DNA from: a virus | IMG/VR virus record: IMGVR_UViG_3300044732_000442 | Location: 32,001-96,000 of that record | Direction: 5' to 3' (one strand) | Length of the DNA stretch: 64,000 nt | Shown: piece after piece, positions 34,291-49,030 of the stretch | Layout of the letters: every line of letters begins with the position of its first letter | Position numbering within the stretch: position 1 is the first letter of the stretch | Program-made: the position numbers and the translations under genes | The notes under the pieces: model-generated | What the model was told of the DNA's origin: nothing | Databases searched by the model: none | What the model saw: the letters and a program-made list of their open reading frames with translations, nothing else

Positions 34291-35022
34291 ATGAAAGATA
34301 ATTTACAAGATTTAATTCAACACACACATGGCTTAGGCTGTATTGATTTGATTAAGGTCAGTGGAACTGACACAGAGACAACTGTAAACGCAGTAGCAGA
34401 AGATAAGAGTGTTATTGTTAGTGGTGTGCTTAAACATCCTAGCGCAGAGTTTATTGGTGTGTTTGGTATGCCTAACTTAGGTAAACTAAAAACAATTCTA
34501 GGCTTTGATGACTATGATGAACATAGTAAAATCAATGTTACACGTGTAAACAAAGACGGTGTAAGTGTGCCAGAGTACATTCACTTTGAAACAAAAGCAG
34601 GTGATTTCGTTAACGATTATCGTTTGATGAGTAAAGCTATTGCTGATGAGAAAGTTAAAACCGTAATGTTCAAAGGCACTACGTGGGGTGTTGAGTTTGA
34701 ACCTACTATTGCTGGCATTCAACGACTAAAGCGTCAAGCAAGTGCTAATAGTGAAGAAAAGAATTTTACTACTAAAACGGAAAACGGTAACTTAATGGTT
34801 TACTTTGGTGACCCATCAACACATTCAGGTAACTTTGTGTTTCATCCCGGTGTTACTGGTACATTGAATAAAGCATGGATGTGGCCTGTTAAAGAGTTCT
34901 TAAGCATCATGGATCTTCCCGGCGATAAAATTATTCGTATCGGTGACGCAGGTGCAACAGAGATTGTAGTTGACAGTGGTCTAGCAGTTTATCGTTATTT
35001 ACTCCCAGCACAAGCAAAATGA
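34291..35022 (+). CDS. Sliding clamp (T4 gp45-like), putative
   Basis: 243 aa directly after PolB; clamp-like size, C-terminal beta strand YRYLLPA. Confidence 0.6.
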   Translation: MKDNLQDLIQHTHGLGCIDLIKVSGTDTETTVNAVAEDKSVIVSGVLKHPSAEFIGVFGMPNLGKLKTILGFDDYDEHSKINVTRVNKDGVSVPEYIHFETKAGDFVNDYRLMSKAIADEKVKTVMFKGTTWGVEFEPTIAGIQRLKRQASANSEEKNFTTKTENGNLMVYFGDPSTHSGNFVFHPGVTGTLNKAWMWPVKEFLSIMDLPGDKIIRIGDAGATEIVVDSGLAVYRYLLPAQAK

Positions 35023-35387
35023 TTAAGAGCATTCACTCTAGTAGTCCATTCTTAACTGTATCAGGTGGTAATCCAGGTTCTACTTATATTGGTAATTTTA
35101 ATGGTACTGGTGTGGGTAATATGCGATATAACCCTAACAGTCAGAACACAGAAGTATATGATGGTAGTACTTGGATTATTCTCTCGGCACATCACGCTAC
35201 TATAAACTTAAGTGATGAAGCAGTTGGTTTGTTACAGTGGGCACGACAAAAGCGTGATGAGGAACTTGAGATAGAAAAATTAGTACTAACTAATTCAACT
35301 ATCAAAGACCTCGTTATGCAAATTAAAGACAAACAAGAACAAATTAAAGTAGTTCAAACATTGATAAAAGAAGAAGTAAAAGTTTAA
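35019..35387 (+). CDS. Hypothetical protein
   Basis: Coupled ORF, C-terminal coiled coil. Confidence 0.6.
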   Translation: MIKSIHSSSPFLTVSGGNPGSTYIGNFNGTGVGNMRYNPNSQNTEVYDGSTWIILSAHHATINLSDEAVGLLQWARQKRDEELEIEKLVLTNSTIKDLVMQIKDKQEQIKVVQTLIKEEVKV

Positions 35388-36961
35388 TGGAACAAGATAA
35401 TCTATCACAAAAACAAAACCCAGATTGGGCATTGTTCTTACCCGCAGTCAGTAGTTTTTATATCTCTGGCTTGGGTAAACAACGTAAAGGTGAAGAGTAC
35501 TTTGATCCTGCACGTATCCCTGCTCAATTCAACGGTGATGTAGAGAAACTAAACTTTCTTAATAGTAAAGAAGGTCTCTATTATTACAAATGGGGCTTGT
35601 ACAGTGCTGGTCATGCTAACTTAGATACTACTAAAGACGATCCTAGTGAATCAATCATTAGAGAACGTGAAGAAGGTACATTTATGTTAGGTGACTCTGG
35701 TGGATTTCAAATTCTTAAAGGTCAATGGCCAGCTGATTGGAAAGATCCTAATTGCCCTAAAGCTATGATTAAGCGTAAAGCAGTATTGAACTGGATGGAC
35801 ACGTACATGGACTATGGCATGGTCCTTGATATTCCTTCACAATCAATAACTACTTTTAATATGAAGGATAAGAATGGTGTAAGTCTTCATGGTATCAGTA
35901 CTATCCAAGAAGCAATTACTGCTACCCATATTAACAATGAATACTTTATCAACAATCGTTCGGGCAAATGTAAGTTCTTAAATGTATTACAAGGTCGTAC
36001 ACATACCCAGTCAGATGAGTGGTACGATGAAATGAAGAAGTATTGTGATCCAAAACAATACCCAGACAATCACTTTAATGGTTGGGCTTTCGGTGGACAG
36101 AATAAGATTGATGTACACTTGATGTTAACAAGAATGATTGATATTATCCATGATGGGTTATTAGTAGAAGGTAAGCATGATTTAATTCACTGTTTGGGTA
36201 CAAGTATTTTAGAATATGCTGTATTGTTTACTGATATTCAACGTGCTATTCGCAAGTATCACAACCCTAAACTTAAAATTACATTTGATTGTGCAAGCCC
36301 ATTCTATAGTGCGGCTAAGGGTTTAGCATATTTCAATACTAATATTGAGCATAACAAGAAATGGTCATACAGTATGGAAAAGACTGCTGAAAAGAAAAGT
36401 TATGCTAATGACACCCGTAAATATAGGGATGCTGTATTAGCTGAAGGAATCCATAAACTCTTTACAGATAGTCCAGTAACTGATAAACTAGTGCTTAAGG
36501 ACTTGTGTTATCGTGGTCAAGGGTTCTTAGGACAACATGGTAAAGAAACTAAGACCAGTTGGGATACATTAAGTTATACATTGCTTCAAAGTCATAATGT
36601 ATGGATGCACATGAATGCCGTACAAGAGGCTAACCGTCAATATGATATAGGTATTGTACCTAAGATGTTGATGAATGAACAATTTGAACGTGTATTGTTT
36701 AAAGATGTTATTGACGAAATTTTCAGTAAGAAAACTAAACAGGAAGCAATTGATTTAATTGATGCTAACAGTAGATTATGGATGCAGTTTCAATCAGGTA
36801 GTCAGGGTATTAGTGGTAAACGAACAGTTAATGCATTGAGTAAGTTTGAAGAACTATTTGAAGTTCAGAATGAAATAGAGTTTGAAGAAGTAATAGAAGA
36901 TAGTGATGATGCTATGAATGAAGTATTACATGAAAAGGTAGATTTAGATGATGACAATTAA
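35387..36961 (+). CDS. dpdA: tRNA-guanine transglycosylase-fold protein, DpdA-like DNA 7-deazaguanine insertion enzyme
   Basis: TGT motifs DSGGFQ, MVLDIP, VLQG, GWAFGG, HCLGTS, FDCASP, HNV; clustered with folE/queD/queE. Confidence 0.78.
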   Translation: MEQDNLSQKQNPDWALFLPAVSSFYISGLGKQRKGEEYFDPARIPAQFNGDVEKLNFLNSKEGLYYYKWGLYSAGHANLDTTKDDPSESIIREREEGTFMLGDSGGFQILKGQWPADWKDPNCPKAMIKRKAVLNWMDTYMDYGMVLDIPSQSITTFNMKDKNGVSLHGISTIQEAITATHINNEYFINNRSGKCKFLNVLQGRTHTQSDEWYDEMKKYCDPKQYPDNHFNGWAFGGQNKIDVHLMLTRMIDIIHDGLLVEGKHDLIHCLGTSILEYAVLFTDIQRAIRKYHNPKLKITFDCASPFYSAAKGLAYFNTNIEHNKKWSYSMEKTAEKKSYANDTRKYRDAVLAEGIHKLFTDSPVTDKLVLKDLCYRGQGFLGQHGKETKTSWDTLSYTLLQSHNVWMHMNAVQEANRQYDIGIVPKMLMNEQFERVLFKDVIDEIFSKKTKQEAIDLIDANSRLWMQFQSGSQGISGKRTVNALSKFEELFEVQNEIEFEEVIEDSDDAMNEVLHEKVDLDDDN

Positions 36962-37175
36962 TCCATCACTTACACTGAAGTCAACAATGACCGGTGATAC
37001 TCAGGAATCTGTTATTACCTTTACCGGTGGTTCAGATGAGATGTTACGTATAGCAAAAGACGGGTTTTATATACGTGGTAAACGGGTACCTCAAGATGAC
37101 AAAGAAGCTGAAGTAGTGTATAATACATTTCATCAGTGGTTAACATGGGCAACACTTAATAGGGATTATAAATGA
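36948..37175 (+). CDS. Hypothetical protein
   Basis: Overlapping small ORF. Confidence 0.55.
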   Translation: MMTINPSLTLKSTMTGDTQESVITFTGGSDEMLRIAKDGFYIRGKRVPQDDKEAEVVYNTFHQWLTWATLNRDYK

Positions 37176-37627
37176 TAGAACAACATGAACATGCAATGCA
37201 CGAAAAACGTGTACGTATTAAACAACATGCATTACGTACAATCTTTGTACGTTTTCAAAAAGAAGGTATTCATAAATACCCAGCGGCAGCAACAGATCCA
37301 GCACTTGCTACAGGTGATGAGTATGATGTTAGCTTTTTAGGATCTCCACATAGACACATCTTTCATTTTGAAGTGTCTATTGAAGTATTTCACAACGACC
37401 GTGATATTGAGTTTATTCAGTTTAAAAGATGGTTAGAGAAACAATATTCTCAAGGCATACTAGAATTGAATTACAAAAGTTGTGAAATGATTAGTGATGA
37501 CCTCTATGATGTTATTGCAACTCGGTATCCAGATCGTAATATCGCTATTCAAGTATCGGAAGATAATGAGAATGGTGCTACTATTGTCTATAACACAAAC
37601 AAACCTTATCAACAACTAGCTATTTAA
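37172..37627 (+). CDS. QueD/6-pyruvoyltetrahydropterin synthase-like T-fold protein
   Basis: EGIH...HRHIFHF...IEFIQFKRWL...SCEMIS...VSED. Confidence 0.7.
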   Translation: MIEQHEHAMHEKRVRIKQHALRTIFVRFQKEGIHKYPAAATDPALATGDEYDVSFLGSPHRHIFHFEVSIEVFHNDRDIEFIQFKRWLEKQYSQGILELNYKSCEMISDDLYDVIATRYPDRNIAIQVSEDNENGATIVYNTNKPYQQLAI

Positions 37628-37638
37628 AGGAATATAAA

Positions 37639-37842
37639 ATGGCAAAACAACAACAATCTAACCCACGTGTTCAACAAATCTTTGAGGACCTAGAAAACTA
37701 TCTAATGTTCTGTCAGGACTATGGATACAAGTTTGATGAATCAACTCTATACGATATGCGTAGCTTTGCATATCGTCAGTTTACTAAGGCAGTAACTGGC
37801 AAGTGGGCTAAAGATCAGTGGCAGGAAGACGCACGTCCATGA
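37639..37842 (+). CDS. Hypothetical protein
   Basis: aagga RBS; 67 aa. Confidence 0.6.
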   Translation: MAKQQQSNPRVQQIFEDLENYLMFCQDYGYKFDESTLYDMRSFAYRQFTKAVTGKWAKDQWQEDARP

Positions 37843-38600
37843 ACGTTGTGTTAGTCACTGGTGGTTTTGATCCGCTACATAGTGGTCATATTGAATATTT
37901 CAAGGCTGCTAAGGCATTAGGATTTTTACTAATAGTAGGAATCAATAGTGACGCATGGTTGACCCGTAAAAAAGGACAACCTTTTATGCCTGTACAGGAA
38001 AGAAAAGCTATCATTGAGAATCTATACCAAGTACATAAGGTAATAGAATTTGATGATAGTGACGATACTGCTATTGATGCTATTCGTAAAGTCAAAGAGA
38101 TGCACCCACAAGCAAAGATAATATTTGCTAATGGGGGAGATAGAACTAAAGATAACATTCCCGAAATGGTTTTTCATGATGTTGAATTTGTTTTTGGAGT
38201 AGGTGGTGAAAACAAACTAAACAGTAGTAGTTGGATACTAGATGAATGGAAACATCCAAAAACATTGCGTGAGTGGGGGTATTATCGTATACTACATGAT
38301 GTAGATGGTTGTAAAGTTAAAGAATTAACTGTAGAGCCAGATAAAAGTTTAAGTATGCAACGACATTTTAAACGAAGTGAATACTGGTTAGTAACTGACG
38401 GTTCTTGCATTGTTTATAGACAAATGAATGGCGGGTATGCATTACCTCCCATGCAGTTAAGTAAACATCAAGAGTTTAAGATACCAGCTGATTCCTGGCA
38501 TCAACTATCTAATCCTTTTGATGAACCATGTAGTATTATAGAAATTCAATATGGTGAAAAATGTATTGAAGAAGATATTGAAAGAAAAACAAATGCGTAA
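37839..38600 (+). CDS. Cytidylyltransferase-like domain fused to mannose-6-phosphate isomerase-type cupin
   Basis: TGGFDPLHSGH, NSDAWL, ANGGDR; C-terminal WGYY...LSMQRH..RSEYW...IEIQYG. Confidence 0.85.
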   Translation: MNVVLVTGGFDPLHSGHIEYFKAAKALGFLLIVGINSDAWLTRKKGQPFMPVQERKAIIENLYQVHKVIEFDDSDDTAIDAIRKVKEMHPQAKIIFANGGDRTKDNIPEMVFHDVEFVFGVGGENKLNSSSWILDEWKHPKTLREWGYYRILHDVDGCKVKELTVEPDKSLSMQRHFKRSEYWLVTDGSCIVYRQMNGGYALPPMQLSKHQEFKIPADSWHQLSNPFDEPCSIIEIQYGEKCIEEDIERKTNA

Positions 38601-39771
38601 ATTATTTTATATGGGGCTAGAACCCTACAAAGCACGTTATACTCTACAACTACAAGAATGGAATGAACGTGTCTTTAAACGTAGAGGTATTAACTATGTT
38701 ATCGTTCCAGGCGAAACATTAAGTAATGACCAAGCTATTGTGACGGGACAAGTATTAGATGCACATGGTCGTACATACTTTGGTATGTCACAACTTATGA
38801 ATTTAGTTAAAATGATGAAGGCGGGTGAGTGTAGTGATGAAGATATTGTCTATTTTGAAGATATGTTTCAACCGGGTATTGAGAGTTTGCCGTATATACT
38901 TAAGCAAGTTCCTGCTAATCTCCGTCCTCGTATATTTGTCCGTTGTCTTGCTCAGTCAATCGATCCGGATGATTTCGTACATGTATGGGGAATGAGTGAA
39001 TTCATGGGTCACTATGAAAAGATGGTTGATTCATTCGTTGATGGCGTACTAGCTACAAATGAAGAAATGATTATGCATATGAAGATTGCGGGATGGAAGG
39101 CACCATTATATAACATTAGCGGTCTAGCATTTGGTAAAGATGAAGTGCGTGGTCGTATTGATGGTCCATTAAAACCCTTCAATCAACGTAAGATGCGTGT
39201 AGCATTTAGTGCAAGATGGGATCAAGAAAAACAACCAGACTTCTATATGGATTTGATTGAAACATTTCATTCTAGGTCTAATACTAAGGTAGAGTTCTGC
39301 GTGTTCAGTGGTAGTAAACTGAAAAGCAATAACGAAAGTTATATGGAACGTACACGTAAACTTCAAAGTGAAGGTAAACTAGTTATCTATGAAGATTTGG
39401 AAAAGAATGATTACTATCAACTATTAAATGATACTAGAGTATTGTTTAACTGTGCTTTGCAAGACTGGGTAAGTAATACAGTTAGTGAAGCAGATACATT
39501 GGGTTGTAATGTATTATATCCGGCATATCGTTCATTCCCAGAAACGTTTGCTAATGATAATACACGATTATATATTCCTTGGAGTATTGATGATGCTATG
39601 TCTAAATTACAAAATTTATTGATGGCACCACATAACTATCAAGGACGTATTAGTAAATACAATGATGGGACTATTGACCGTATCTGTGATATTATGGAAG
39701 GCAATGGAGAACAATATTTACGCATGACTAGTGATTATCGTAAATACACAAGAGAAACAAAATACTCATAA
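38593..39771 (+). CDS. Glycosyltransferase (GT-B fold)
   Basis: ARWDQEKQP and QDWVSNTVSEA (GT4-like motif); two-domain size. Confidence 0.72.
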   Translation: MRKLFYMGLEPYKARYTLQLQEWNERVFKRRGINYVIVPGETLSNDQAIVTGQVLDAHGRTYFGMSQLMNLVKMMKAGECSDEDIVYFEDMFQPGIESLPYILKQVPANLRPRIFVRCLAQSIDPDDFVHVWGMSEFMGHYEKMVDSFVDGVLATNEEMIMHMKIAGWKAPLYNISGLAFGKDEVRGRIDGPLKPFNQRKMRVAFSARWDQEKQPDFYMDLIETFHSRSNTKVEFCVFSGSKLKSNNESYMERTRKLQSEGKLVIYEDLEKNDYYQLLNDTRVLFNCALQDWVSNTVSEADTLGCNVLYPAYRSFPETFANDNTRLYIPWSIDDAMSKLQNLLMAPHNYQGRISKYNDGTIDRICDIMEGNGEQYLRMTSDYRKYTRETKYS

Positions 39772-39786
39772 CATAAAGGAAATAAA

Positions 39787-39981
39787 ATGAGCGCACAAAA
39801 TGATATTGAAACAAGCTTGGCAGCATATAATACTGAGAATGATAAGTTTAACAAAGGTAATGCAGCCGCTGGTACACGGGCTCGTAAGGCATTAGCAGAA
39901 CTAGCTAAAGCGGTTAAAGCACGCCGTAATGAAATTACAGCAGAAAAAGCCGCACGTGCAGAAGCAAAAGCTAAGGCTTAA
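39787..39981 (+). CDS. Histone H1-like (Hc1-type) small protein
   Basis: KGNAAAGTRARKALAEL motif. Confidence 0.7.
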   Translation: MSAQNDIETSLAAYNTENDKFNKGNAAAGTRARKALAELAKAVKARRNEITAEKAARAEAKAKA

Positions 39982-39983
39982 CC

Positions 39984-40211
39984 ATGGCTCGCAAGAAAAT
40001 TCAACTTGCAGAAGTTAGTTCATTGCCAGACTCAGTACAAAAAGGTAGTCACTTAACGGTGACTACTTATCCTGATGGCAAAACAGAATTAGAATGGGAT
40101 TGGGACGCATTAGTTAATGAGGTACGTGAAGCCTGCGCTAGTGTTGAACTTGCCAATACAAAGCCGGCAGTTAAGGCTAAATCAAAAAAATCAGTTGCTA
40201 AAACAAAGTGA
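39984..40211 (+). CDS. Hypothetical protein
   Basis: 75 aa ORF. Confidence 0.55.
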   Translation: MARKKIQLAEVSSLPDSVQKGSHLTVTTYPDGKTELEWDWDALVNEVREACASVELANTKPAVKAKSKKSVAKTK

Positions 40212-40277
40212 TAAATACTTGTGTTACACAACGGTAACACAATATCAAAACAAAACCATCACAAAGGAAGGTTATCT

Positions 40278-40961
40278 ATGAGTTATAATAAAACAAAAAC
40301 CGATCCAGTACTGGGTCTACAAGTACACGAACACTTAGTTAGAATGGGTGTTGAGACTCCTACAATCAAGTCTTTGGTTCCGGATCGTAAAGATAAGATT
40401 GCGGTCATTGAGCCGTTATTTGCCGAGATTATGAAAACACTTGGTTTAGATTTATCTGATGATAGTCTTATTGAAACACCTAAACGTGTTGCCAAGATGT
40501 ATGTCAATGAAATATTTTGGGGTCTCGATTATGAAGCATTCCCTAAATGTACAACAGTTGACAATAAGATGCAATACAACGAAATGGTTGTAGAGCGTAA
40601 TGTTAATGTTCAATCTAACTGCGAACATCATTTTGTAGTCATTGATGGATTGGCTACAGTAGCTTATGTCCCTAAACAAAAGGTGTTAGGGCTTAGTAAG
40701 ATAAACCGTATTGTAGAATATTTTAGCAAAAGACCTCAAATTCAAGAGAGGTTAACAGAGCAAATTTTTCACACCTTACAGTTCATCCTTGATACAGAAG
40801 ATGTTGCAGTTATGATTGACGCACAACACTATTGTGTAAAATCACGCGGCGTAGAAGATACAGGTAGTAGCACTGTTACTTGTCGTTTAGGTGGTGGTTT
40901 CAAAACTGATCCATCAGCACGACAAGAGTTCTTACAAATTGCTAACAAAGGTTGCAAATAA
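40278..40961 (+). CDS. folE: GTP cyclohydrolase I
   Basis: [40 protein letters not shown]. Confidence 0.96.
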
Positions 40962-41197
40962 TGGGCTTTCGTAAACAAATGGACTATAACAGTGTTCATC
41001 ATCAAATCTATATGAGTGGTGTAGAACTACATAGTAACTATAATGACGGATTTAATCAATTTGAAATCAAAAAAGACTTACATCGGATCAAATGGCTATT
41101 GGATGAGATTATAGCCGATAGTCCTACATTTGCCGGTGAAGATGAATTCTTAAAAGAACACGAACAAACTAAGATGTGGAGAACTCTTTCAAAATGA
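40961..41197 (+). CDS. Hypothetical protein
   Basis: ATG overlaps folE stop. Confidence 0.55.
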   Translation: MGFRKQMDYNSVHHQIYMSGVELHSNYNDGFNQFEIKKDLHRIKWLLDEIIADSPTFAGEDEFLKEHEQTKMWRTLSK

Positions 41198-41667
41198 TTT
41201 TCAATCACATTAAAGAACTAAAAGCACAAGGTAAAAAGATTGGTATCACTTTCAGTACATTTGACTTGCTACATGCAGGGCATGTTGCTATGTTAAGTGA
41301 AGCTAAGAATCATTGTGACTATTTGATTTGTGGGTTGCAAACTGATCCTACTATTGATAGACCTGACACTAAGAATAAACCCATTCAAAGTATTGTAGAG
41401 CGACAGATTCAACTTGCGGCTTGTCGTTATGTTGATGAAGTTGTTGTCTATCAAACTGAACAGGACCTTATTGACCTATTACTTATTCTACCATTAGATG
41501 TTCGCATTTTGGGTGTAGAGTATGCAGATAAAGAGTTTACTGGAAGATGGGAGGGCGGTGAGCGTGGCATTGAACTTGTGTTCAATGGTCGTGACCATAG
41601 TTTCAGTAGCAGTAGTTTACGTAAACGGGTAGCTGATGCCCAAATCATTAACACTCTTAATAAATAA
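41194..41667 (+). CDS. tagD: Glycerol-3-phosphate cytidylyltransferase-like
   Basis: STFDLLHAGH, CRYVDEV, RDHSFSSSSLR. Confidence 0.8.
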   Translation: MIFNHIKELKAQGKKIGITFSTFDLLHAGHVAMLSEAKNHCDYLICGLQTDPTIDRPDTKNKPIQSIVERQIQLAACRYVDEVVVYQTEQDLIDLLLILPLDVRILGVEYADKEFTGRWEGGERGIELVFNGRDHSFSSSSLRKRVADAQIINTLNK

Positions 41668-41671
41668 GATA

Positions 41672-41737
41672 ACCGGTCTCTTTGGGCTCATCCCGGTATA
41701 CAAACTCTGCGTCCTATGCTATAATATAACATAGGAG
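41672..41737 (+). promoter_or_regulatory. preQ1-I-like riboswitch candidate plus RBS-sequestering hairpin upstream of queD
   Basis: ACCGG-UCUCUUUGGGCUCAU-C-CCGGU-AUACAAA-CUC; then UCCUAUG/CAUAGGA hairpin covering the SD. Confidence 0.55.
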
Positions 41738-41743
41738 AACACA

Positions 41744-42226
41744 ATGGCAAACAAAAAATTCTTTTCAACAAAAACATACAGACAAATAGGTCCTGTCGCA
41801 TATCGTCAATGGCGTGCTGACAGTCATTGTAACTTAATTCATGGCTATGCTATGAGTTTTCACTTTGAATTTGAAGCAGATACATTAGATGCCCGTAACT
41901 GGGTAACTGACTTCGGTGGATTACGACCACTTAAAGATAAACTAGAAGAATGGTTTGACCATACATTATTAGTCGCACAAGATGACCCAATGCGTGAACA
42001 TCTATTAGAACTAGGTCGTTTAAAACTAGCAAAGATTACAGAAGTAGAACGTACTGGTTGTGAGGGTATTGCTGACTTCTTATATGAATACATTAACACA
42101 ATCTTTTTACCTAACTGCGGTAGTGAAGAAGCAAAACGTGTATGGTGCTGTAGAGTAGAGGTCCGTGAGACTGATAGTAACATGGCAGGACGAGGTGGTC
42201 ACAGGGAAGACGGAGAGTTTGCATAA
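41744..42226 (+). CDS. queD: 6-carboxytetrahydropterin synthase
   Basis: SHCNLIHGY, DFGGL, FDHTLL, TGCE, VEVRET. Confidence 0.88.
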   Translation: MANKKFFSTKTYRQIGPVAYRQWRADSHCNLIHGYAMSFHFEFEADTLDARNWVTDFGGLRPLKDKLEEWFDHTLLVAQDDPMREHLLELGRLKLAKITEVERTGCEGIADFLYEYINTIFLPNCGSEEAKRVWCCRVEVRETDSNMAGRGGHREDGEFA

Positions 42227-43074
42227 TGGCACAACTAAAAATTTCAGAACTATTCTATAGTATACAAGGAGAAGGCCGATATATGGGAGTTCCCTCCGTG
42301 TTCCTAAGAACATTTGGTTGTAACTTTACATGTGCAGGCTTTGGCATGCCTAAAGGTGAAGTAAGTAAAGAAGTAGAAGATATTGCCGCAAGGGTTCACT
42401 ATTATGATGATTATAAAAAACTACCGTTGGTCAGTACAGGGTGTGACAGTTATGCTTCATGGGATCCTAGGTTTAAGCATCTTAGTCCTGTTCGCCCCAC
42501 CGATGATATTGTTGACGACATTATGGCTATGCTTCCTCACAATCGCTGGATGGATGAGCACCTTGTCATCACTGGCGGTGAACCTCTTCTTGGATGGCAA
42601 AGAGCGTATCCAGAACTGCTTTCAAACGAGAAGATGAGGTCATTGAAAGAGATTACATTTGAAACTAATGGTACACAAGAACTAAGTCAAGACCTCTCTA
42701 TCTATCTACAACAATGGAAGATTAACAGAGAAAAGAATGCACTTACATTTAGTGTTAGCCCTAAACTAAGTATCAGTGGTGAGAAGTGGGAAGAAGCAAT
42801 TTGTCCTAGTATTATTCGTCAATATGAAAGTATTGGCTTTGTATATTTAAAGTTTGTTATCGCTACTAAAGAAGATGCATTAGAAGCTGATAAGGCAGTA
42901 CAAGAGTTTCGTAATGGTGGATTTAGAGGCCCTGTATACTTTATGCCATGTGGTGGTGTAGAAAGTATCTATAGTTTGAATGCTAAGAATGTTGCTATTG
43001 AAGCAATGAATCGTGGTTATCGTTATAGTGATAGACTTCAAGTCCCACTGTTTAAAAACGAGTGGGGCACATAA
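42226..43074 (+). CDS. queE: 7-carboxy-7-deazaguanine synthase (radical SAM)
   Basis: ELFYSIQGEG, FLRTFGCNFTC...GCDS, ITGGEP, ETNGT, VSPK, RLQV. Confidence 0.92.
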   Translation: MAQLKISELFYSIQGEGRYMGVPSVFLRTFGCNFTCAGFGMPKGEVSKEVEDIAARVHYYDDYKKLPLVSTGCDSYASWDPRFKHLSPVRPTDDIVDDIMAMLPHNRWMDEHLVITGGEPLLGWQRAYPELLSNEKMRSLKEITFETNGTQELSQDLSIYLQQWKINREKNALTFSVSPKLSISGEKWEEAICPSIIRQYESIGFVYLKFVIATKEDALEADKAVQEFRNGGFRGPVYFMPCGGVESIYSLNAKNVAIEAMNRGYRYSDRLQVPLFKNEWGT

Positions 43075-43086
43075 AATAGTCTCTAC

Positions 43087-43320
43087 ATGTTAGATTATCC
43101 AATAGATGATGATGTATTTTACAACAATGCATTAATGAGAGGTCTAGGATCAACTCTTAAGTTTGCATGGTTGCCTAAAAGATGTGTGTTAACCGGTAAG
43201 TTGATTTGGTTAACATATGGTTATAGGGTTACAGCAATGTGGTCAGGGCCAGGTGAGTCCATATTTGAACACAAATGGCATTCTAAGAATGCCCACATTA
43301 TGTGGTTATTAAAAAGGTAA
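43087..43320 (+). CDS. Hypothetical protein
   Basis: FAWLPKRC..TGKLIWL motif of small phage proteins. Confidence 0.55.
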   Translation: MLDYPIDDDVFYNNALMRGLGSTLKFAWLPKRCVLTGKLIWLTYGYRVTAMWSGPGESIFEHKWHSKNAHIMWLLKR

Positions 43321-43324
43321 ATAT

Positions 43325-43498
43325 ATGTATGAATTAAGATATCTTGTCCGAAACGGTTATGACGGACCAGAAAAAGTGTTACAATATAGAACACAAAGTG
43401 AAGTAACTGATTATAGTACAACTACCCTTAACGGCAGTTTTACTAAAAAGCGTGAGTGGACTGAATGGCAAGATGTACCTACTGTAAAAGATAAATGA
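43325..43498 (+). CDS. Small hypothetical protein (57 aa, MYELRYLVR...WQDVPTV)
   Basis: Not in track; aagg RBS; stop overlaps next ATG. Confidence 0.6.
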   Translation: MYELRYLVRNGYDGPEKVLQYRTQSEVTDYSTTTLNGSFTKKREWTEWQDVPTVKDK

Positions 43499-44832
43499 GA
43501 ACATACGATAAACGAATTGGCTTCTTAGTAAGCTATCAAACATTAATACCACATGGTGGGATAGGGCAATTTACAAAAAGCTTCTGTGAACTAATGGACC
43601 AACATAATATTAAAGTTGATATCATTACCGATAAAGAACCACAAGATACTGAGTTTGTTAAATCTATCAAAGCAAATGTTATTGCCCCATTAGAATCACT
43701 AAAATATACTGACCACAGCAATATCTTTATGTATGGGGATACATTCTGTTATGAACGAATGGCTAATTTCCGTACAGCAATTGTAGAAGCACTGGAACAT
43801 AATTTGTATGATGTACTGATATGCAACACATATGAAACTGTGCAGGTAGCTAGTACTATGGGACTTGAAGATGTGATTCAAATCATTGCATATACTCATT
43901 TAGAAAGTCAGATATTCACAGACACCAAGAATCCCTTCTTGTCTAACACTAATGTAGCAATGCGTCACCAATTAAGCTTAACGAATATTGATGTGGGTAC
44001 ACAGAGTAAATTCAATCAAGTACATTTAGATGAATCTTCATATCACTTGCCTATTCCTATTACAGAACGTGGATTACTGGAAGAACATCATAAGACACGT
44101 GAAGGTATATTGTTTGTTGGACGATGGGAAGAAGGTAAGAATCCTGAGTTGTTCTTAGACTTGATTGAACAAACAAACCTTCCAGCAAAAGTAATGACTA
44201 GTGCAAATGGTGCAAAGAAGTTTGAAGATAGACTACAGAAGATAGGTGTACCTTACGAAATTCGTGTAGGTATCATTGGTCAAGAGAAAGTTAACTTTAT
44301 GACAAGTGCTAGAATTGCATTCAATCCTAGTATTGTTGAGAGTTATGGTATGGCATTCTATGAACAACATATTCAAATGCCTACATTAGTGTTAGAACAT
44401 CAACGTTGGACTAATAACTTTAACAAAGATTTCTTTTATACTTGTACTAAAAAAGACATGGCAAGTAAAGCAAAAGAATTGTACGATATTTTTGAAAAAG
44501 CAGAAAGATGGTATAACTTGGGAGCATTGCAACATGCACAAGAACAAGAAGCTACTGTCTTTCATAAATGGAACAACTGTTTTAATGATTTTGAACCTAG
44601 AAAATCTAACAGTAATACAGCAAAAATATGCAATGAGACTACAATTAAACACGTTGATTTTATCAGTGATTTGAACCGTAGTATTATTTGTATTGATGAT
44701 GTACGTAGTGTTTTAACCAATAAACATAAATTTAGGGTTATCTATACAGATGACGATACATACTTAACAAAAGATCCAAACTTTGAACCAATAGAAGAAG
44801 CAGAAGGTCTATCATTATTTGAGGGTTTATGA
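43495..44832 (+). CDS. Glycosyltransferase (GT-B, GT4-like)
   Basis: PHGGIG, FVGRWEEGKNP, PSIVESYGMAFYE. Confidence 0.82.
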   Translation: MRTYDKRIGFLVSYQTLIPHGGIGQFTKSFCELMDQHNIKVDIITDKEPQDTEFVKSIKANVIAPLESLKYTDHSNIFMYGDTFCYERMANFRTAIVEALEHNLYDVLICNTYETVQVASTMGLEDVIQIIAYTHLESQIFTDTKNPFLSNTNVAMRHQLSLTNIDVGTQSKFNQVHLDESSYHLPIPITERGLLEEHHKTREGILFVGRWEEGKNPELFLDLIEQTNLPAKVMTSANGAKKFEDRLQKIGVPYEIRVGIIGQEKVNFMTSARIAFNPSIVESYGMAFYEQHIQMPTLVLEHQRWTNNFNKDFFYTCTKKDMASKAKELYDIFEKAERWYNLGALQHAQEQEATVFHKWNNCFNDFEPRKSNSNTAKICNETTIKHVDFISDLNRSIICIDDVRSVLTNKHKFRVIYTDDDTYLTKDPNFEPIEEAEGLSLFEGL

Positions 44833-45662
44833 AAAAGATTTTAATTACAGGATGCTCAGGATACATTGGCAGTCATCTATGCAAAATGCTTGAGAATGAA
44901 TATGAAGTTCATGGCTTAGATATTGATGAACCACAAGCGCCATTGAATGAGTTTTATCGTTGCGATATCAATAGACAATTTGCTATTCCGGGTGATATTG
45001 AATATGATTGTGTAATCCATTTAGCGGCATTAGTTCGTGTAGGTGAAAGCGAGCAGATGCCTATCAAATACTATATCACTAACTTGAATGGTACAATGAA
45101 TGTAGTTAACAAGATAAAGACAAAGAACTTTATCTTTGCTAGTACAGGTGCCGCACAAGATTGTGCTAGTGCTTATGGTATCAGCAAACGTGCCGCAGAA
45201 GATGTGGTCAGAGAATATTGTACAACCCATCGTCAAACACCATATACAATCTTTAGATTTTATAATGTTATTGGAAGCACCGTCGTGGCTCCCACTAACC
45301 CCGATGGGTTAATGTACAATTTAATTAAAGCTAAAGAGTCGGGTGAGTTTACTATTTACGGTAATGATTATGATGTGTCCGTTATTGATGGTACATGTAT
45401 ACGTGATTATGTACATGTTAATGAGATATGTGATGCATTGATGCAAGCAATTGAAAAGCCTAGCAATAGCTTTGAATGCTTAGGACATGGTGTAGGATAT
45501 ACTGTACAGGAGATTGTTGATTTATTTCAAAAAGTCAATGAGTGTAGTTTTGATGTAAAATACGGCCCAAGGAGAAAGGGTGATTTACCTAGTTCTGTAC
45601 TAGCTAATGTATCACCCTATATGCGTAATCTATACACTATGGAAGATTTATTGAAGGTTTAG
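44829..45662 (+). CDS. galE: NAD-dependent nucleotide-sugar epimerase (GalE-like)
   Basis: TGCSGYIGSH, HLAA, YGISK, RFYNV, DGTCIRDYVHV. Confidence 0.88.
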   Translation: MKKILITGCSGYIGSHLCKMLENEYEVHGLDIDEPQAPLNEFYRCDINRQFAIPGDIEYDCVIHLAALVRVGESEQMPIKYYITNLNGTMNVVNKIKTKNFIFASTGAAQDCASAYGISKRAAEDVVREYCTTHRQTPYTIFRFYNVIGSTVVAPTNPDGLMYNLIKAKESGEFTIYGNDYDVSVIDGTCIRDYVHVNEICDALMQAIEKPSNSFECLGHGVGYTVQEIVDLFQKVNECSFDVKYGPRRKGDLPSSVLANVSPYMRNLYTMEDLLKV

Positions 45663-47032
45663 TGTTTCAATAATAATGTAGACAATACATCTTGTCTATT
45701 AGCACTGATATCACCCTCACCTGGTGCAATGATAACATTCCATTTCTTAATGTTATTCTTTTGTGGAGTAGCCATCATCTCATTATAATCAATGATACTA
45801 TCACGTTTTAAATTATATTGATTTGCCAATCTGTCTTTTAATTCTTCTAATGCGGCTGCGTCTTTTGGTTGCCAAGCACCATCAGCGGTCTTATCTAACT
45901 TACCATCCTTATCCTTCTTCAATAAGTCATAGAATAACTTACTTGGAACAATACGACTATTCTTAGTTACATCTAGTTGTGGATCTTGTTGTTTAACTTG
46001 TTTCTCTTGACTAGTACTTGCACCCTCACTCCAATTAACAATAAAGTTACTTGGCTTTTGACCTAAGGCTGCATCCGCTATTTTTGTATAAGCATAGAAC
46101 TTAACATCAGGATGTGATGCCGCTAATTTGAATGCCAAATCCATATATTCTGGACTAAAGAAATCACCAGCATCATGCCAACGAATAGTTAGATTGTAAC
46201 CACCCTTTTGTGCTAGCTTTTCTTCTTTTGTGATTTCTGCACTTAGTTGATTAAAGAATCCATCTGGATCATTCAATAAGAAAGTAAGAATTCTTCCGTC
46301 ACTTAACCAAGGACCTTCAAACTGAACCTTACCACCCTTCATAGCGAAACAATCTACTTTACATGATCCAGCACCCGGACATGTATTAACTACTATGAGT
46401 TCGTTTGTACCTTCATCTAATGCTATACCGACTAGTGCGGCAAAACCAATGTTATAGAATTGTTCTAGTTCACCATTAGAATGTTTCATCTTCTCATTTT
46501 GTTTAAGAAGTTTCTTTGGGCGAACACCTAATGCTGTTTTGATTTGGTCTGTATCGTAGCGTTTACCTTCTTCATTGTAGTATTTGACTACACTTGAGCG
46601 ATGGATGTAAGGAAGTTTATATTTGTCTGTTTTACCCTTTTCACGATTACGAATTCTATCTAAGTAATCATCTAGTTCTTGGCCTTTTAGTTCACGTGTT
46701 TGTGCTGGTAGTTTTGTTGCTTCTGCTACAGGTTGTTGTTTAGTAGCAGGTTCCATTGTAGCACGAATCTTGCCGATAGCTTGACCTATACCAGCGGCTC
46801 TTTTTTCAGCCTTTTTAAATTGATTTTTAGGATCTTGTTTAAGTCTATCTCTAGCATCTGTATTAGATTTTCTAACATAGCTTGCTAATGTTTGAGGAGA
46901 CAATTCATCTAATTGTTCATCGGGCAAATCATCAGATTGAGCCAGAAACTGATCCATGCTCATAACTTTGATGCCACCTACAGCACCCGGTAATTTGGGT
47001 GTTGCACCCTCAAATAGTTCTACAAAATTCAT
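45659..47032 (-). CDS. GP88-like Cys-cluster (radical-SAM-like) domain behind capsid-targeting start and small modules
   Basis: MNFVELFE; EQLDE and PVAE linkers; CPGAGSCKVDC, RWHDAGDF, FYAYTK. Confidence 0.7.
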   Translation of the reverse strand: MNFVELFEGATPKLPGAVGGIKVMSMDQFLAQSDDLPDEQLDELSPQTLASYVRKSNTDARDRLKQDPKNQFKKAEKRAAGIGQAIGKIRATMEPATKQQPVAEATKLPAQTRELKGQELDDYLDRIRNREKGKTDKYKLPYIHRSSVVKYYNEEGKRYDTDQIKTALGVRPKKLLKQNEKMKHSNGELEQFYNIGFAALVGIALDEGTNELIVVNTCPGAGSCKVDCFAMKGGKVQFEGPWLSDGRILTFLLNDPDGFFNQLSAEITKEEKLAQKGGYNLTIRWHDAGDFFSPEYMDLAFKLAASHPDVKFYAYTKIADAALGQKPSNFIVNWSEGASTSQEKQVKQQDPQLDVTKNSRIVPSKLFYDLLKKDKDGKLDKTADGAWQPKDAAALEELKDRLANQYNLKRDSIIDYNEMMATPQKNNIKKWNVIIAPGEGDISANRQDVLSTLLLKH

Positions 47033-47925
47033 TTCTTAAGATTCCTAATATATTGTTCAGCTAGCATTACTAATTCTTCCATTTGCTCTACACTCTCGCA
47101 ATTCCATCTACGTAGTGCTAATGCTTTAGGGGTAGGTTTACCATTAGGCTTTTTCATAGGACCTTTGTTACCACTCATACGAGCACAAAAACTCTTGCGG
47201 CGTTTGGCAGCTTTTGATCCAGGCTTTAATTTACTAGGTTTGGTAGTAACTGCTGTTTGCAATTTGCTGCCTGGATTTTCCCTACGATATGCTTTCACTG
47301 CTTTACGGCTCATGCCGGACGTTTTGTCTTTCTTATTGACTTTGTTCCAGTCTTCATCGATACCTTGCTGAGGTGTTGTACCATAATGGCTCATATTATC
47401 ATAGGTTGACCTACCTAAATGTGTGTTGATTAAAAACATCTGAGCATCCTTAAGACTCTTATGATTCATTTGTTTTATAAAATTACCATCTTTTCTTCTA
47501 GTTGTAAAGGGAGGTTGACCTGTCCTACTATATATATGTCCTATTTTTTGACCATCGTATATAAATTCATATTCTTTCCATGGATCTTTTGCTTCATTCA
47601 TACCCTGTTGACCTAGTGGAATATTAGCAATATCATTTACAGTAATATTAACTAAATTAGTTGTTCCATTTGCTATACGGGCAAAGTGTCCCTGATTGTG
47701 TAAATTCATCATTGCGTAATAAAGATAGTTTGGGTCAATAACATCAGTTTTTACAACTTTAATGCCAATCCTTGATGGATCAAATTCTTTGAGAGGCTTA
47801 CCCACAGTCTTATCACTACCCTTACGCACTAACCAAAAGTCAGCGTCTGGCATATTAGTAGCAATTTTTGCTATGTCTTTTAGTCTGGTTCCTGAACTCT
47901 CTGATATAATTTCGGTAAATCTCAT
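47029..47925 (-). CDS. Modular head-packaged protein: HsdS/TRD-like fragment plus basic RRKSFCARM module
   Basis: MRFTEIISE; LKDIAKI...PNYLYY...GTTNLVNIT...IPL; QGMNE and QGIDE linkers. Confidence 0.65.
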   Translation of the reverse strand: MRFTEIISESSGTRLKDIAKIATNMPDADFWLVRKGSDKTVGKPLKEFDPSRIGIKVVKTDVIDPNYLYYAMMNLHNQGHFARIANGTTNLVNITVNDIANIPLGQQGMNEAKDPWKEYEFIYDGQKIGHIYSRTGQPPFTTRRKDGNFIKQMNHKSLKDAQMFLINTHLGRSTYDNMSHYGTTPQQGIDEDWNKVNKKDKTSGMSRKAVKAYRRENPGSKLQTAVTTKPSKLKPGSKAAKRRKSFCARMSGNKGPMKKPNGKPTPKALALRRWNCESVEQMEELVMLAEQYIRNLKK

Positions 47926-47944: not shown

Positions 47945-47988
47945 TGACTTTATTGTGTAAATATGTTACACTACATCTATTATTTATC
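47945..47988. promoter_or_regulatory. Divergent promoters: sigma70-type (+) and late TAAATA (-)
   Basis: TTGACT-N17-TACACT on + (47945-47973); gaTAAATA on - (47981-47988). Confidence 0.55.
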
Positions 47989-48004
47989 ACTTTGGACTAT
48001 TACT

Positions 48005-49030
48005 TTGACAAATCAATCTATCAAACGCATCGGCTTTGCTTGTAAATGGGCAGAAATCAACAGTAAAGGCGAGATTGTCTCTGCTGAAGGCCTTAACACA
48101 GGCGGTACAACTCAAGCATGGGCAAAACGTAATAACCGTAGTGTAGTGGAAGAAAAGATTATGGATGTTGCTAAACGCAATATTATGAATACTCACGCAT
48201 TGGTTAAGCGTGTTGCTACATTAGAACCCGAATTGCGTATGGTTCGTCTTACTAGTGATATGCTTAGTTTTTATACTATGGATGGATACAAAGAATTTTG
48301 GCAAAGTACTGATGTACAAAATAGTTTACAACGATGGTTTGCACCCATCGGTGAGACAGCTAGAGCAAATGATGTACGTCTTTCATTTCATCCCGATCAA
48401 TTTGTAGTTTTAGCAAGCGACCGTGATGAGGTAGTAAATAAGAGTATAGAGGAGTTTGAATATCATGCAGATATGGCCAGATGGATGGGGTTCGGTAGAA
48501 ATTTCCAGGATTTTAAGATTAATATACACATATCTGGGCGTAGAGGCCCACAAGGAATCAGAGATGTTTACGGAAGACTCAGCCCCGAAGCAAGAAACAC
48601 ACTAACACTAGAAAATGAGGAATACACACATGGACTTACAGACTGCTTATCATTATCTGATCTCGTACCTACAGTCATGGACATACACCATAATTGGATA
48701 CGTGAAGGAGAATATATTTCCGCAAATGATGACCGGGTTAAGATGGTTATTGATAGTTGGCGCGGTGTTAGGCCTACTTTACATTACTCCGTCAGCCGTG
48801 AAGATATACTTGTCGGACATCCCGGATCACAATTACCCTCTCATGGTGCGTTGATTGAAGCAGGACATAGTAAACAGAAGCTTCGGGCACATTCCGACTA
48901 CTATTGGAACGATGCTGTGAACGATTGGGCATTGACATTTATTGATAACTTTGATATGATGTGTGAATCAAAGGCAAAGAATCTTGCCAGCTTTAAACTA
49001 TACGAAAGATACAAATGTTTGAAAAATTAA
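48005..49030 (+). CDS. uvsE: UV damage endonuclease
   Basis: RIGFACK, RLSFHPDQF, LENEE, DIHH, HYS, AHSDY, CESKAK; start probably TTG 48005. Confidence 0.92.
   Translation: MTNQSIKRIGFACKWAEINSKGEIVSAEGLNTGGTTQAWAKRNNRSVVEEKIMDVAKRNIMNTHALVKRVATLEPELRMVRLTSDMLSFYTMDGYKEFWQSTDVQNSLQRWFAPIGETARANDVRLSFHPDQFVVLASDRDEVVNKSIEEFEYHADMARWMGFGRNFQDFKINIHISGRRGPQGIRDVYGRLSPEARNTLTLENEEYTHGLTDCLSLSDLVPTVMDIHHNWIREGEYISANDDRVKMVIDSWRGVRPTLHYSVSREDILVGHPGSQLPSHGALIEAGHSKQKLRAHSDYYWNDAVNDWALTFIDNFDMMCESKAKNLASFKLYERYKCLKN

Follow-up and report, generated by a model that had tools for sequence, protein, structure and literature searches.

A phiST/ACP17-type deazaguanine DNA-modification module with a putative glycosylation arm in a jumbo-phage fragment

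The DNA analyzed here is a 64,000-nucleotide window, bases 32001-96000 of the 116,115-bp IMG/VR viral contig IMGVR_UViG_3300044732_000442 (CheckV completeness 34%). The element in question is a gene cluster at positions 35387-45662 of the window that combines genes for 7-deazaguanine synthesis with glycosyltransferase (GT) and sugar-nucleotide genes, all of them encoded on the plus strand (Table 1). Because the contigs of close relatives reach 349-360 kb, the window contig is a fragment of a jumbo-phage genome. The backbone at the locus, in the order PolB, a 243-residue protein (p243), the modification cluster, and a 5'-3' exonuclease/RNase H, is common to the Pseudomonas jumbo phage PA5oct (Wroclawvirus), and the PolB proteins are 47-48% identical. 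An initial annotation, made from the letters of the window, had described the cluster as a 7-deazaguanine DNA-modification cluster joined to machinery for sugar and glycerol-phosphate transfer. Its gene list is borne out: FolE, QueD, QueE, two GT-B glycosyltransferases (GT1 and GT2), a cytidylyltransferase–cupin fusion (CT-cupin), a second, small nucleotidyltransferase (CT2), and a GalE-like extended short-chain dehydrogenase/reductase (SDR) are all located.

Table 1 Features of the modification cluster and its surroundings (positions in the window).
Feature	Position	Strand	Evidence or remark
TilS N-domain PP-loop ATPase, 198 residues	30588-31184	+	TIGR02432, 131 bits (cut-off 93.6)
p243, 243-residue protein after PolB, accompanies the module	34291..35022	+	Clamp label unconfirmed
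DpdA-like DNA transglycosylase candidate, 524 residues, long ACP17/X1/PA5oct type	35387..36961	+	TGT TIM-barrel fold (model)
DpdL, QueD paralogue, putative CDG decarboxylase, 151 residues	37172..37627	+	Exact LxxxHRHxF signature; homology
Small conserved ORF, 67 residues, directly 3' of dpdL	37639..37842	+	Matches no family
CT-cupin, cytidylyltransferase-like domain fused to phosphomannose isomerase (PMI)-type cupin	37818..38600	+	PF01467, E=4e-13; PF01050, E=3e-21
GT1, GT4-type GT-B glycosyltransferase, partner of the DpdL/DpdA-like core	38551..39771	+	AlphaFold/Foldseek; homology
Hc1-type histone-like DNA-binding protein, 64 residues, mid-cluster	39787..39981	+	PF07432, E=6e-12
FolE, GTP cyclohydrolase I	40221..40961	+	NF006824 equivalog, 318 bits (cut-off 202); PF01227, E=5e-61
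CT2, small nucleotidyltransferase, RfaE-domain-II/TagD-like	41176..41667	+	PF01467, E=1e-11
QueD, CxxxHGY variant	41744..42226	+	PF01242, E=9e-16; phrog_2389, E=3e-41
QueE-like radical SAM enzyme (CDG synthase)	42226..43074	+	phrog_2076, E=6e-52
GT2, second GT4-type GT-B glycosyltransferase	43495..44832	+	PF00534, E=3e-5, under gathering threshold
GalE-like extended SDR (NDP-sugar epimerase or dehydratase)	44829..45662	+	PF01370, E=9e-35; TIGR01179, 156 bits (cut-off 262)
Two genes: 457-residue GP88-domain protein and 298-residue protein with C-terminal DUF6321	45659-47925	-	
UvdE UV-endonuclease	47963-49030		

FolE, QueD, and QueE, whose assignments are well supported by homology, would convert GTP to 7-carboxy-7-deazaguanine (CDG). 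The top NCBIfam matches of the QueE-like protein are five QueE models, all under cut-off. The motif of QueD is CxxxHGY (C29-NLI-H33-G-Y35), and it is common to 34 of the 34 QueDs of the loci fetched for comparison as well as to the QueD of Cellulophaga phage phiST. Since all of these proteins share it, CxxxHGY is a trait of the DpdL-type pathway described below, not a defect. QueC, which the initial annotation had not recognized in the window, is absent from the whole 116-kb contig (no match to PF06508) and from a CheckV-complete 348.7-kb relative, in which the best match reaches 16.5 bits and is under cut-off. Neither QueF nor an amidotransferase is found in the contig or in this complete relative. 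The stretch 5' of queD (41661-41746) gives no match to an Rfam preQ1 riboswitch, such as preQ1-I, at E<=1 when searched within 14 kb or at E<=10 when searched within 201 nt; it contains a 5-bp hairpin (ACCGG...CCGGT), with no further riboswitch support.

The initial annotation had also listed a second QueD-like gene. The gene is real, and it is more specifically DpdL, given its exact LxxxHRHxF signature (L56-GSP-H60-R-H62-I-F64) and its homology to the DpdLs of Acidovorax phage ACP17 (57% identity, E=3e-47) and phiST (gp040, 30-32% identity, E=2e-11). DpdL is a QueD paralogue in which CxxxHGH is replaced by LxxxHRHxF; it occurs in phages with DpdA, FolE, QueD, and QueE and without QueC, has been cloned from ACP17 and phiST, and has as its proposed role the decarboxylation of CDG to 7-deazaguanine (Cui et al. 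2023, NAR 51:9214, PMC10516641). Across the fetched loci, 117 of 117 DpdL-family ORFs carry the signature, and H34, H60-R-H62, and C104-E105 are among the invariant residues. Between lineages, no gene of the cluster is better conserved than DpdL (52-74% identity, as against 35-42% for the DpdA-like protein). In phiST, the measured product of the DpdL pathway is plain 7-deazaguanine in DNA (dDG), with full replacement of G (PMC10516641). dDG replaces G fully in vibriophage VP1, too. The gene context of DpdA3-type transglycosylases (FolE, QueD, QueE, and DpdL, without QueC) is the context seen in the window. Because DpdL is present and QueC is absent, the core is the known phiST-type pathway, and the expected base is plain 7-deazaguanine, not CDG or 7-cyano-7-deazaguanine (preQ0). 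As a side observation on DpdL, in Vibrio phage Bakedbeans (gp176, locus L105 5215-6366) it forms the C-terminal part of a 383-residue protein, an apparent fusion with an N-terminal domain of ~260 residues.

The sequence libraries are silent on the 524-residue protein at the start of the cluster: it has no match in Pfam, PHROGs, NCBIfam, or the PDB (phmmer), and a 60-sequence profile of its family has none among the PDB sequences. Only structure and profile–profile comparison identified it. The AlphaFold2 model, made with 60 diverse homologues, has a pLDDT of 89.5 and a pTM of 0.88, and 50 of the 50 top Foldseek matches in the PDB are tRNA-guanine transglycosylases (TGTs; probability 1.0). In VIA-align, ~305 residues of the model align with bacterial, archaeal, and eukaryotic TGTs at a Z of 18-19. 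Among the viral structures of BFVD, the model matches phage proteins named DpdA/TGT or queuine tRNA-ribosyltransferase and also the DpdA3 of phiST (M4SLA5, 259 residues; probability 0.99, E=4e-3). The DpdA/TGT-like call of the initial annotation is thus right at the level of the fold.

The family of the 524-residue protein is very large: it forms >6,500 clusters at 90% identity, and at 50% it has 857 representatives. In an alignment of 60 members (26-89% identity), residues D103, S104, G106, D148, H268, G271, and D301 are invariant, and G105 and Q108 are nearly so. The stretch D103-S104-G105-G106-x-Q108 is the TGT motif DSGG(F/Y)Q and aligns with DSGGLQ of the proteins of ACP17, Xanthomonas phage X1, and the cultured cyanophage BUCT-ZZ01 (a Synechococcus phage). 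D103, D148, and D301 are positioned at or just beyond the ends of the barrel strands of the model, and we take them to be the equivalents of D102, D156, and D280 of Z. mobilis TGT. By hhalign, the family matches ACP17 ASD50403 (96.6%, E=5e-10), the X1 protein annotated as queuine tRNA-ribosyltransferase (95.9%), and the BUCT-ZZ01 protein (93.7%). The match to phiST DpdA3 (CGPG_00065, gp042) is weak (66%, E=6e-5, 82 columns); in BLASTP, DpdA-like members from a second lineage of module-bearing phages (lineage 2) match the same protein at E=0.004. The phiST protein is half as long as that of the window. On this evidence we class the 524-residue protein as DpdA-like, within the TGT superfamily and closest to the ACP17/DpdA3 branch, without calling it a demonstrated DpdA3. 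A further observation concerns its C-terminal tail (residues 473-524), which is of low confidence and strongly acidic (17 D/E against 4 K/R in 52 residues), a feature unexpected in a DNA-binding enzyme.

Taken with the family matches and DpdL, the TGT fold supports the claim of a 7-deazaguanine cluster, and the region is very probably a deazaguanine DNA-modification module. It shares with the phiST/ACP17 pathway FolE, the CxxxHGY form of QueD, QueE, the LxxxHRHxF form of DpdL, a divergent TGT-fold transglycosylase, the absence of QueC, and a position adjoining the replicative polymerase. In ACP17, QueD (71% identity), FolE (62%), and GT1 have homologues in addition to DpdL and the protein in the DpdA slot. 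phiST differs in that it has no counterpart of the GT4-type glycosyltransferase that is conserved in the window, ACP17, PA5oct, X1, Phosso, and BUCT-ZZ01, and the lineage of the window adds to the phiST/ACP17 pathway a second GT and nucleotide-sugar genes.

The true start of GT1 is probably ~14 codons downstream of that in Table 1; most homologues have 392 residues. Its AlphaFold2 model (pLDDT 74, pTM 0.76) matches BshA, MshA, PimA, PglA, and glycogen synthase in Foldseek (probability 1.0, E 1e-12 to 1e-9). Pfam Glycos_transf_1 scores 19.8 bits for GT1 and 24.2 bits for GT2, with a gathering cut-off of 26.4, and the atlas neighbours of both are of GT4 type. In an alignment of GT1 with members of 18-95% identity, residues R222, K227, E313, A314, and G318 are invariant. 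We take these to be the GT4 donor motifs R-x4-K and E-A-x3-G of EX7E, the first acid of which is apparently D305. The invariant residues would be compatible with an intact donor site.

Homologues of GT1 are found in ACP17 (ASD50404, E=4e-18), in PA5oct (EST35_0317, E=2e-11), and in lineage 2 (a protein of 358 residues). A homologue of 342-358 residues adjoins dpdA-like or dpdL in ACP17, PA5oct, lineage 2, Phosso, X1, BUDD, and BCSR5, and the gene after dpdL in BUCT-ZZ01 is 64% identical to GT1 over 97% of its length. When the ACP17 GT is used as a query against 50,697 phage records, 23 match, 18 of which bear DpdL, with a gap of 4-2765 bp between the two genes (Fisher p=6e-58, inflated by relatedness; at least seven independent groups). 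The other five are one group of Xanthomonas/Erwinia jumbo phages with a weaker GT4 in a BshA/BshB/GlmS-like context. In a third clade of uncultured loci, retrieved with a cyanophage DpdL query, GT1 is present in 39 of 43, immediately upstream of dpdL in one of them and downstream in the others. In the four loci without it, the sequence ends <1.1 kb after dpdL.

Separation of the GTs from dpdA in relatives had been named as the observation that would count against a link. The opposite is found: in all examined lineages with a module of this type, GT1 keeps its synteny with dpdL and the dpdA-like gene, which ties the sugar machinery to the cluster. The link between sugar machinery and deazaguanine is therefore much stronger than the initial annotation could know, and GT1 is likely to be functionally coupled to the module. 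As far as can be told, the conserved GT arm is an unreported feature of the pathway; the string 'glycosyl' occurs 0 times in the text of Cui et al. (PMC10516641). As an observation in its own right, Xanthomonas phage PhiXhv-15 (locus L106 6747-9981) encodes, one after another, GlmS, a BshB-like N-acetylglucosamine-malate deacetylase, and a BshA-like GT4, and que genes are absent from the neighbourhood; this row of the Xanthomonas/Erwinia jumbo phages may be a separate glycosylation or thiol-cofactor-like pathway.

Coupling in position could have another origin. The phage may make plain dDG only, as phiST and VP1 do, while the GTs and sugar genes serve virion proteins, the host envelope, or a soluble metabolite, and the adjacency of GT and dpdL reflects a shared early/middle transcription unit of the replication module. 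DpdL and a DpdA3-type enzyme indeed give dDG in phiST without a GT, dDG presents no handle for a sugar, the structural neighbours of GT1 use acceptors other than nucleic acids, and the accessory sugar genes come and go in close relatives, as morons do. However, chance fails to explain the position of GT1 within ~3 kb of dpdL in at least seven very different cultured groups with gene orders that are otherwise rearranged, or beside dpdL in 39 of the 39 informative uncultured loci, and the adjacency spans cyanophage, Kyanoviridae-type, Busanvirus, and several jumbo-phage backbones. Moreover, the sole GT4 branch found without dpdL has the different BshA/BshB/GlmS-like context, and the cluster lies in the module for replication and nucleotide metabolism, not in the structural module. 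We regard this explanation as unlikely, though it deserves serious weight.

The same structural neighbours raise the possibility that GT1 glycosylates a free small molecule, a deazapurine base or a pterin, and that the sugar is inserted together with the base or is a transient carrier or protecting group. BshA and MshA, among the top structure matches, glycosylate small molecules. The DpdA-like proteins of modules with the GT have 416-549 residues, compared with 259 in phiST, which lacks it, and this suits a larger substrate. Many modules encode a purine phosphoribosyltransferase, so free-base metabolism is active, and reconstitution of the pathway without the GT failed (PMC10516641). On the other hand, the pockets of TGT-family enzymes usually bury the 7-substituent, and the explanation merges with glycosylation of the modified base if the sugar stays on the base once inserted. 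As a separate explanation, we consider it quite improbable. Regarding the phosphoribosyltransferase, a xanthine-guanine phosphoribosyltransferase-like gene is present in BUCT-ZZ01 (locus L102 3447-3908) and in more than 20 of loci L108-L150, being frequent in the DpdL/GT1 modules of the third clade, and is absent from the 116-kb contig; it could salvage guanine freed by transglycosylation or make deazapurine nucleotides.

GT2 is GT4-like by its atlas neighbours, which are viral and bacterial GT4 clusters. In the que/dpdL cluster of BUCT-ZZ01, a GT2 homologue (37% identity at 95% coverage) is flanked by FolE and the DpdA-like protein, the order being QueE, phosphoribosyltransferase, a gene of no known function, QueD, FolE, GT2, DpdA-like, DpdL, GT1. 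The cluster is kept in 80 close relatives of the window phage, with GT2 at 41-92% identity, CT-cupin in ~40% of them, and GT1 missing in a few. The cluster of lineage 2, whose DpdA-like proteins are 37-42% identical, contains an SDR, a UDP-glucose/GDP-mannose dehydrogenase, a DegT-type aminotransferase, a phosphomannomutase, a GDP-mannose-dehydratase-like SDR, and a B12-binding radical SAM protein. Two details of the lineage-2 modules (L094 14865-16670; L092 7625-9948) may be added: the B12-binding radical SAM protein has 601 residues and stands with the UDP-sugar dehydrogenase, and the DegT aminotransferase is apparently split into ORFs of 194 and 201 residues. These three enzymes may point to another kind of sugar, amino or deoxy, or else to C-methylation. 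GalE-like and CT2-like genes recur next to GT1 in independent third-clade loci (L142, in the order GT1-GalE-CT2, and L147). PA5oct and ACP17 have GT1 and no sugar-nucleotide genes in the region examined. By this distribution, the sugar-nucleotide genes are accessory and lineage-specific and the GT is the conserved element, a pattern that would be expected if GT1 uses a nucleoside diphosphate (NDP)-sugar, the donor being supplied or altered by some lineages.

The two cytidylyltransferase-like genes bear on the base and on the decoration that the initial annotation had proposed, namely CDG, or preQ0 made by a host QueC, inserted and then furnished with sugar and/or with glycerol phosphate through TagD-like activation. 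The carboxylate of CDG or the amine of preQ1 would be a chemically easy attachment point, and the decarboxylase activity of DpdL has never been shown biochemically (PMC10516641). Yet DpdL is invariant, occurring in every module, and the measured product of its pathway is dDG; as neither the contig nor the complete relative has QueC, QueF, or an amidotransferase, CDG or preQ0 is an unlikely inserted base. Glycerol-phosphate transfer finds no specific support either. CT2 is closer to domain II of the ADP-heptose synthase RfaE (TIGR02199, 80 bits) than to TagD (TIGR01518, 54 bits), both scores being under cut-off; no TagB/TagF-type glycerophosphotransferase is found, and the cytidylyltransferase genes are absent from most modules that bear the GT. 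CT2 is better viewed as a candidate enzyme for sugar-1-phosphate activation, and we think it very improbable that this combination of base and decoration is correct.

The GT-B enzymes of T-even phages glucosylate 5-hydroxymethylcytosine (5hmC), and GT1 and GT2 might likewise glycosylate hydroxymethylated pyrimidines, apart from the deazaguanine pathway. The genome of the complete relative offers no such competing acceptor: its sole thymidylate synthase (TS)-family gene is a genuine ThyA, above two ThyA equivalog cut-offs, the 116-kb contig has no TS-family gene, and no hydroxymethylase is found in either. GT1, in addition, tracks dpdL, not pyrimidine-modification genes. Glycosylation of hydroxymethyl-cytosine or -uracil was rejected on the ThyA-only TS family, and we attach next to no probability to it. 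The logic of T-even glucosylation is nevertheless the same as that proposed here: a non-canonical base in phage DNA is decorated post-synthetically by GT-B enzymes with NDP-sugars, sometimes in two successive transfers, and the sugar differs among related phages under the pressure of type IV restriction. The differences are that the base would be a purine analogue, not 5hmC, that the GTs are GT4-like, and that genes for donor synthesis are phage-encoded.

We lean, by a modest degree, toward a phiST/ACP17-type deazaguanine module with its own glycosylation arm. In this proposal, DpdL processes the CDG made by FolE, QueD, and QueE further, by the published proposal through decarboxylation to 7-deazaguanine, and the 524-residue DpdA-like enzyme would swap guanine in the phage DNA for the deazapurine. 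As suggested by the conserved neighbourhood, GT1, a retaining-type GT4 that adjoins dpdL in almost all phages with the long DpdA-like form, would transfer a sugar from an NDP-sugar to the deazapurine, whether already in DNA or still a free base awaiting insertion, and GT2 would add a second or alternative sugar. The donors may be supplied or diversified here by the phage-encoded CT-cupin, CT2, and GalE-like SDR; other lineages have different sugar-nucleotide genes at the same place, or none, in which case the host presumably provides the NDP-sugars. The outcome would be virion DNA whose 7-deazaguanine bears a sugar and blocks restriction, and variation of the sugar among lineages might be driven by modification-dependent host nucleases and glycosylases.

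Several points weigh against glycosylation of the base. The most important is chemical: dDG has no hydroxyl, amine, or carboxyl at C7, so a glycosidic link needs unprecedented chemistry, an extra step, or another DpdL product. T4 alpha- and beta-glucosyltransferases are absent from the top 50 structure matches of GT1, and BshA, MshA, and PimA use small molecules or lipids. The role of the GT is argued wholly from comparative evidence, and the literature searched holds no nucleoside mass data for GT-bearing phages. Some phages have DpdL and lack this GT, namely the phiST group, RHph_I1_18, Ahp1, and Bakedbeans; the GT thus often accompanies the long DpdA-like form and is not required for making a deazaguanine. 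As for the transglycosylase, the Pfam TGT family (PF01702) matches 0 of 60 DpdA-like family members and nothing in the contig, and the DpdA-like alignment contains no conserved Cys cluster of the structural zinc site CxCxxC...H, the nearest zinc-like columns being C374 (60%) and H403 (82%).

There are ways around the missing acceptor. The sugar may be attached through a ring atom or through N2 or O6; a hydroxylation or other step may have gone unrecognized; DpdL may make something other than dDG where a GT accompanies it; or the free base may be glycosylated before insertion, which fits because the structural neighbours of GT1 use small molecules and the DpdA-like proteins of GT modules are long. 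A glycosylated deazaguanine is thus strongly suggested but chemically unproven, since dDG offers no obvious acceptor atom, and the scales are about level, tipping slightly if at all toward a glycosylated deazapurine in DNA as the end product. The broader proposal is evenly balanced, namely that a large and widespread group of phages glycosylates genomic 7-deazaguanine by means of a dedicated GT4 encoded beside dpdL. This group would comprise the freshwater jumbo phages, the PA5oct-like Pseudomonas phages, ACP17, the Xanthomonas phages X1 and BUDD, Burkholderia phage BCSR5, Sinorhizobium phage Phosso, and a T4-like cyanophage. The sugars would differ by lineage, with mannose or heptose types in the window phage and amino or deoxy types in lineage 2.

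To our knowledge, eight natural 7-deazaguanine DNA modifications have been described, all with small C7 substituents, and we know of phage-DNA sugars on hydroxymethyl-pyrimidines only. The initial annotation knew of no glycosylated 7-deazaguanine in DNA, and none is reported in the literature searched, which covered few subscription journals; the same search gives no report on follow-ups of DpdA3 or on the DNA of BUCT-ZZ01. If the proposal is true, DNA would have its first example of a glycosylated purine analogue, and with it a new chemical class of base. Either the sugar would have to be joined to the deazapurine ring by a new chemistry, or DpdL would have to yield something else than plain 7-deazaguanine. 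Lineage-specific sugar pathways suggest that the modification diversifies under attack by type IV nucleases, END nucleases, and antiviral DNA glycosylases, which may be likened to glucosyl- and arabinosyl-hydroxymethylcytosine of T-even phages. The enzymes may be useful for site-selective DNA labelling. Even if the sugar goes elsewhere, the near-obligate pairing of DpdL and GT is an unreported feature of the pathway that needs explanation.

GTDC1 is assigned to CAZy family GT4, like GT1 and GT2. In vertebrate tRNA, this enzyme makes mannosyl-queuosine (manQ), and B3GNTL1 makes galactosyl-queuosine (galQ) (Zhao et al. 2023, as cited in bioRxiv 10.64898/2026.03.22.713446). There, as proposed here, a 7-deazaguanine derivative inserted by a TGT-family enzyme is glycosylated from an NDP-sugar; the vertebrate system differs in that the nucleic acid is RNA, not DNA, and the sugar is on the cyclopentenediol of queuosine. 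Queuosine cannot be made by the phage, as QueC, QueF, QueA, and QueG are all missing.

Several cultured phages bear the module, so the proposal is directly testable. One of them is PA5oct, a therapeutic candidate. Its DNA resists several restriction enzymes that cut at G sites, it is targeted by END nucleases, and it has QueE and PTPS genes, its modified G being uncharacterized (PMC12191111). The PA5oct region has the order PolB, 243-residue protein, DpdA-like (35% identity), GT1 homologue, DpdL (59%), QueE, RNase H, as in the window, and differs in having no second GT, nucleotidyltransferases, or GalE-like gene in the region examined. If the proposal is true, it could identify the modified G of this phage. 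Another is ACP17. Expression of dpdA and dpdL from ACP17 or phiST in E. coli gave no dDG, and extra enzymes were suggested (PMC10516641). The GT beside ACP17 dpdL is an obvious candidate for the missing enzyme, and omission of this partner could explain the failed reconstitution with the ACP17 genes.

Of the remaining genes, the 67-residue ORF is found at the same position in lineage 2 (28-34% identity) and in most close relatives, and the Hc1-type (chlamydial) histone-like protein is partially conserved in relatives. Homologues of p243 adjoin the module in PA5oct (31% identity), Phosso (32%), and lineage 2 (52%). The initial annotation had called p243 a clamp, and the Phosso homologue is annotated as a sliding clamp, whereas the annotation of the one in PA5oct is virion protein, on mass-spectrometric grounds. 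The clamp assignment is not confirmable by sequence, as p243 has no match in Pfam or the PDB and is placed in phrog_12062, a PHROG without a function.

The TilS N-domain protein is encoded just 5' of PolB. It is without the C-terminal tRNA-binding domains of TilS, and the window is without tRNA genes. The gene is kept in most close relatives and is not beside the module in PA5oct or lineage 2. This PP-loop protein was considered as a substitute for QueC and rejected, since it is above the equivalog-domain cut-off as a TilS N-domain. Xanthomonas phage X1 has a PP-loop gene of the PAPS-reductase family within its que/dpdL module; the two are unrelated, with only the SGGxDS motif in common. At the other end of the cluster, the run of plus-strand genes is broken directly by the two minus-strand genes of Table 1, after which UvdE comes next.

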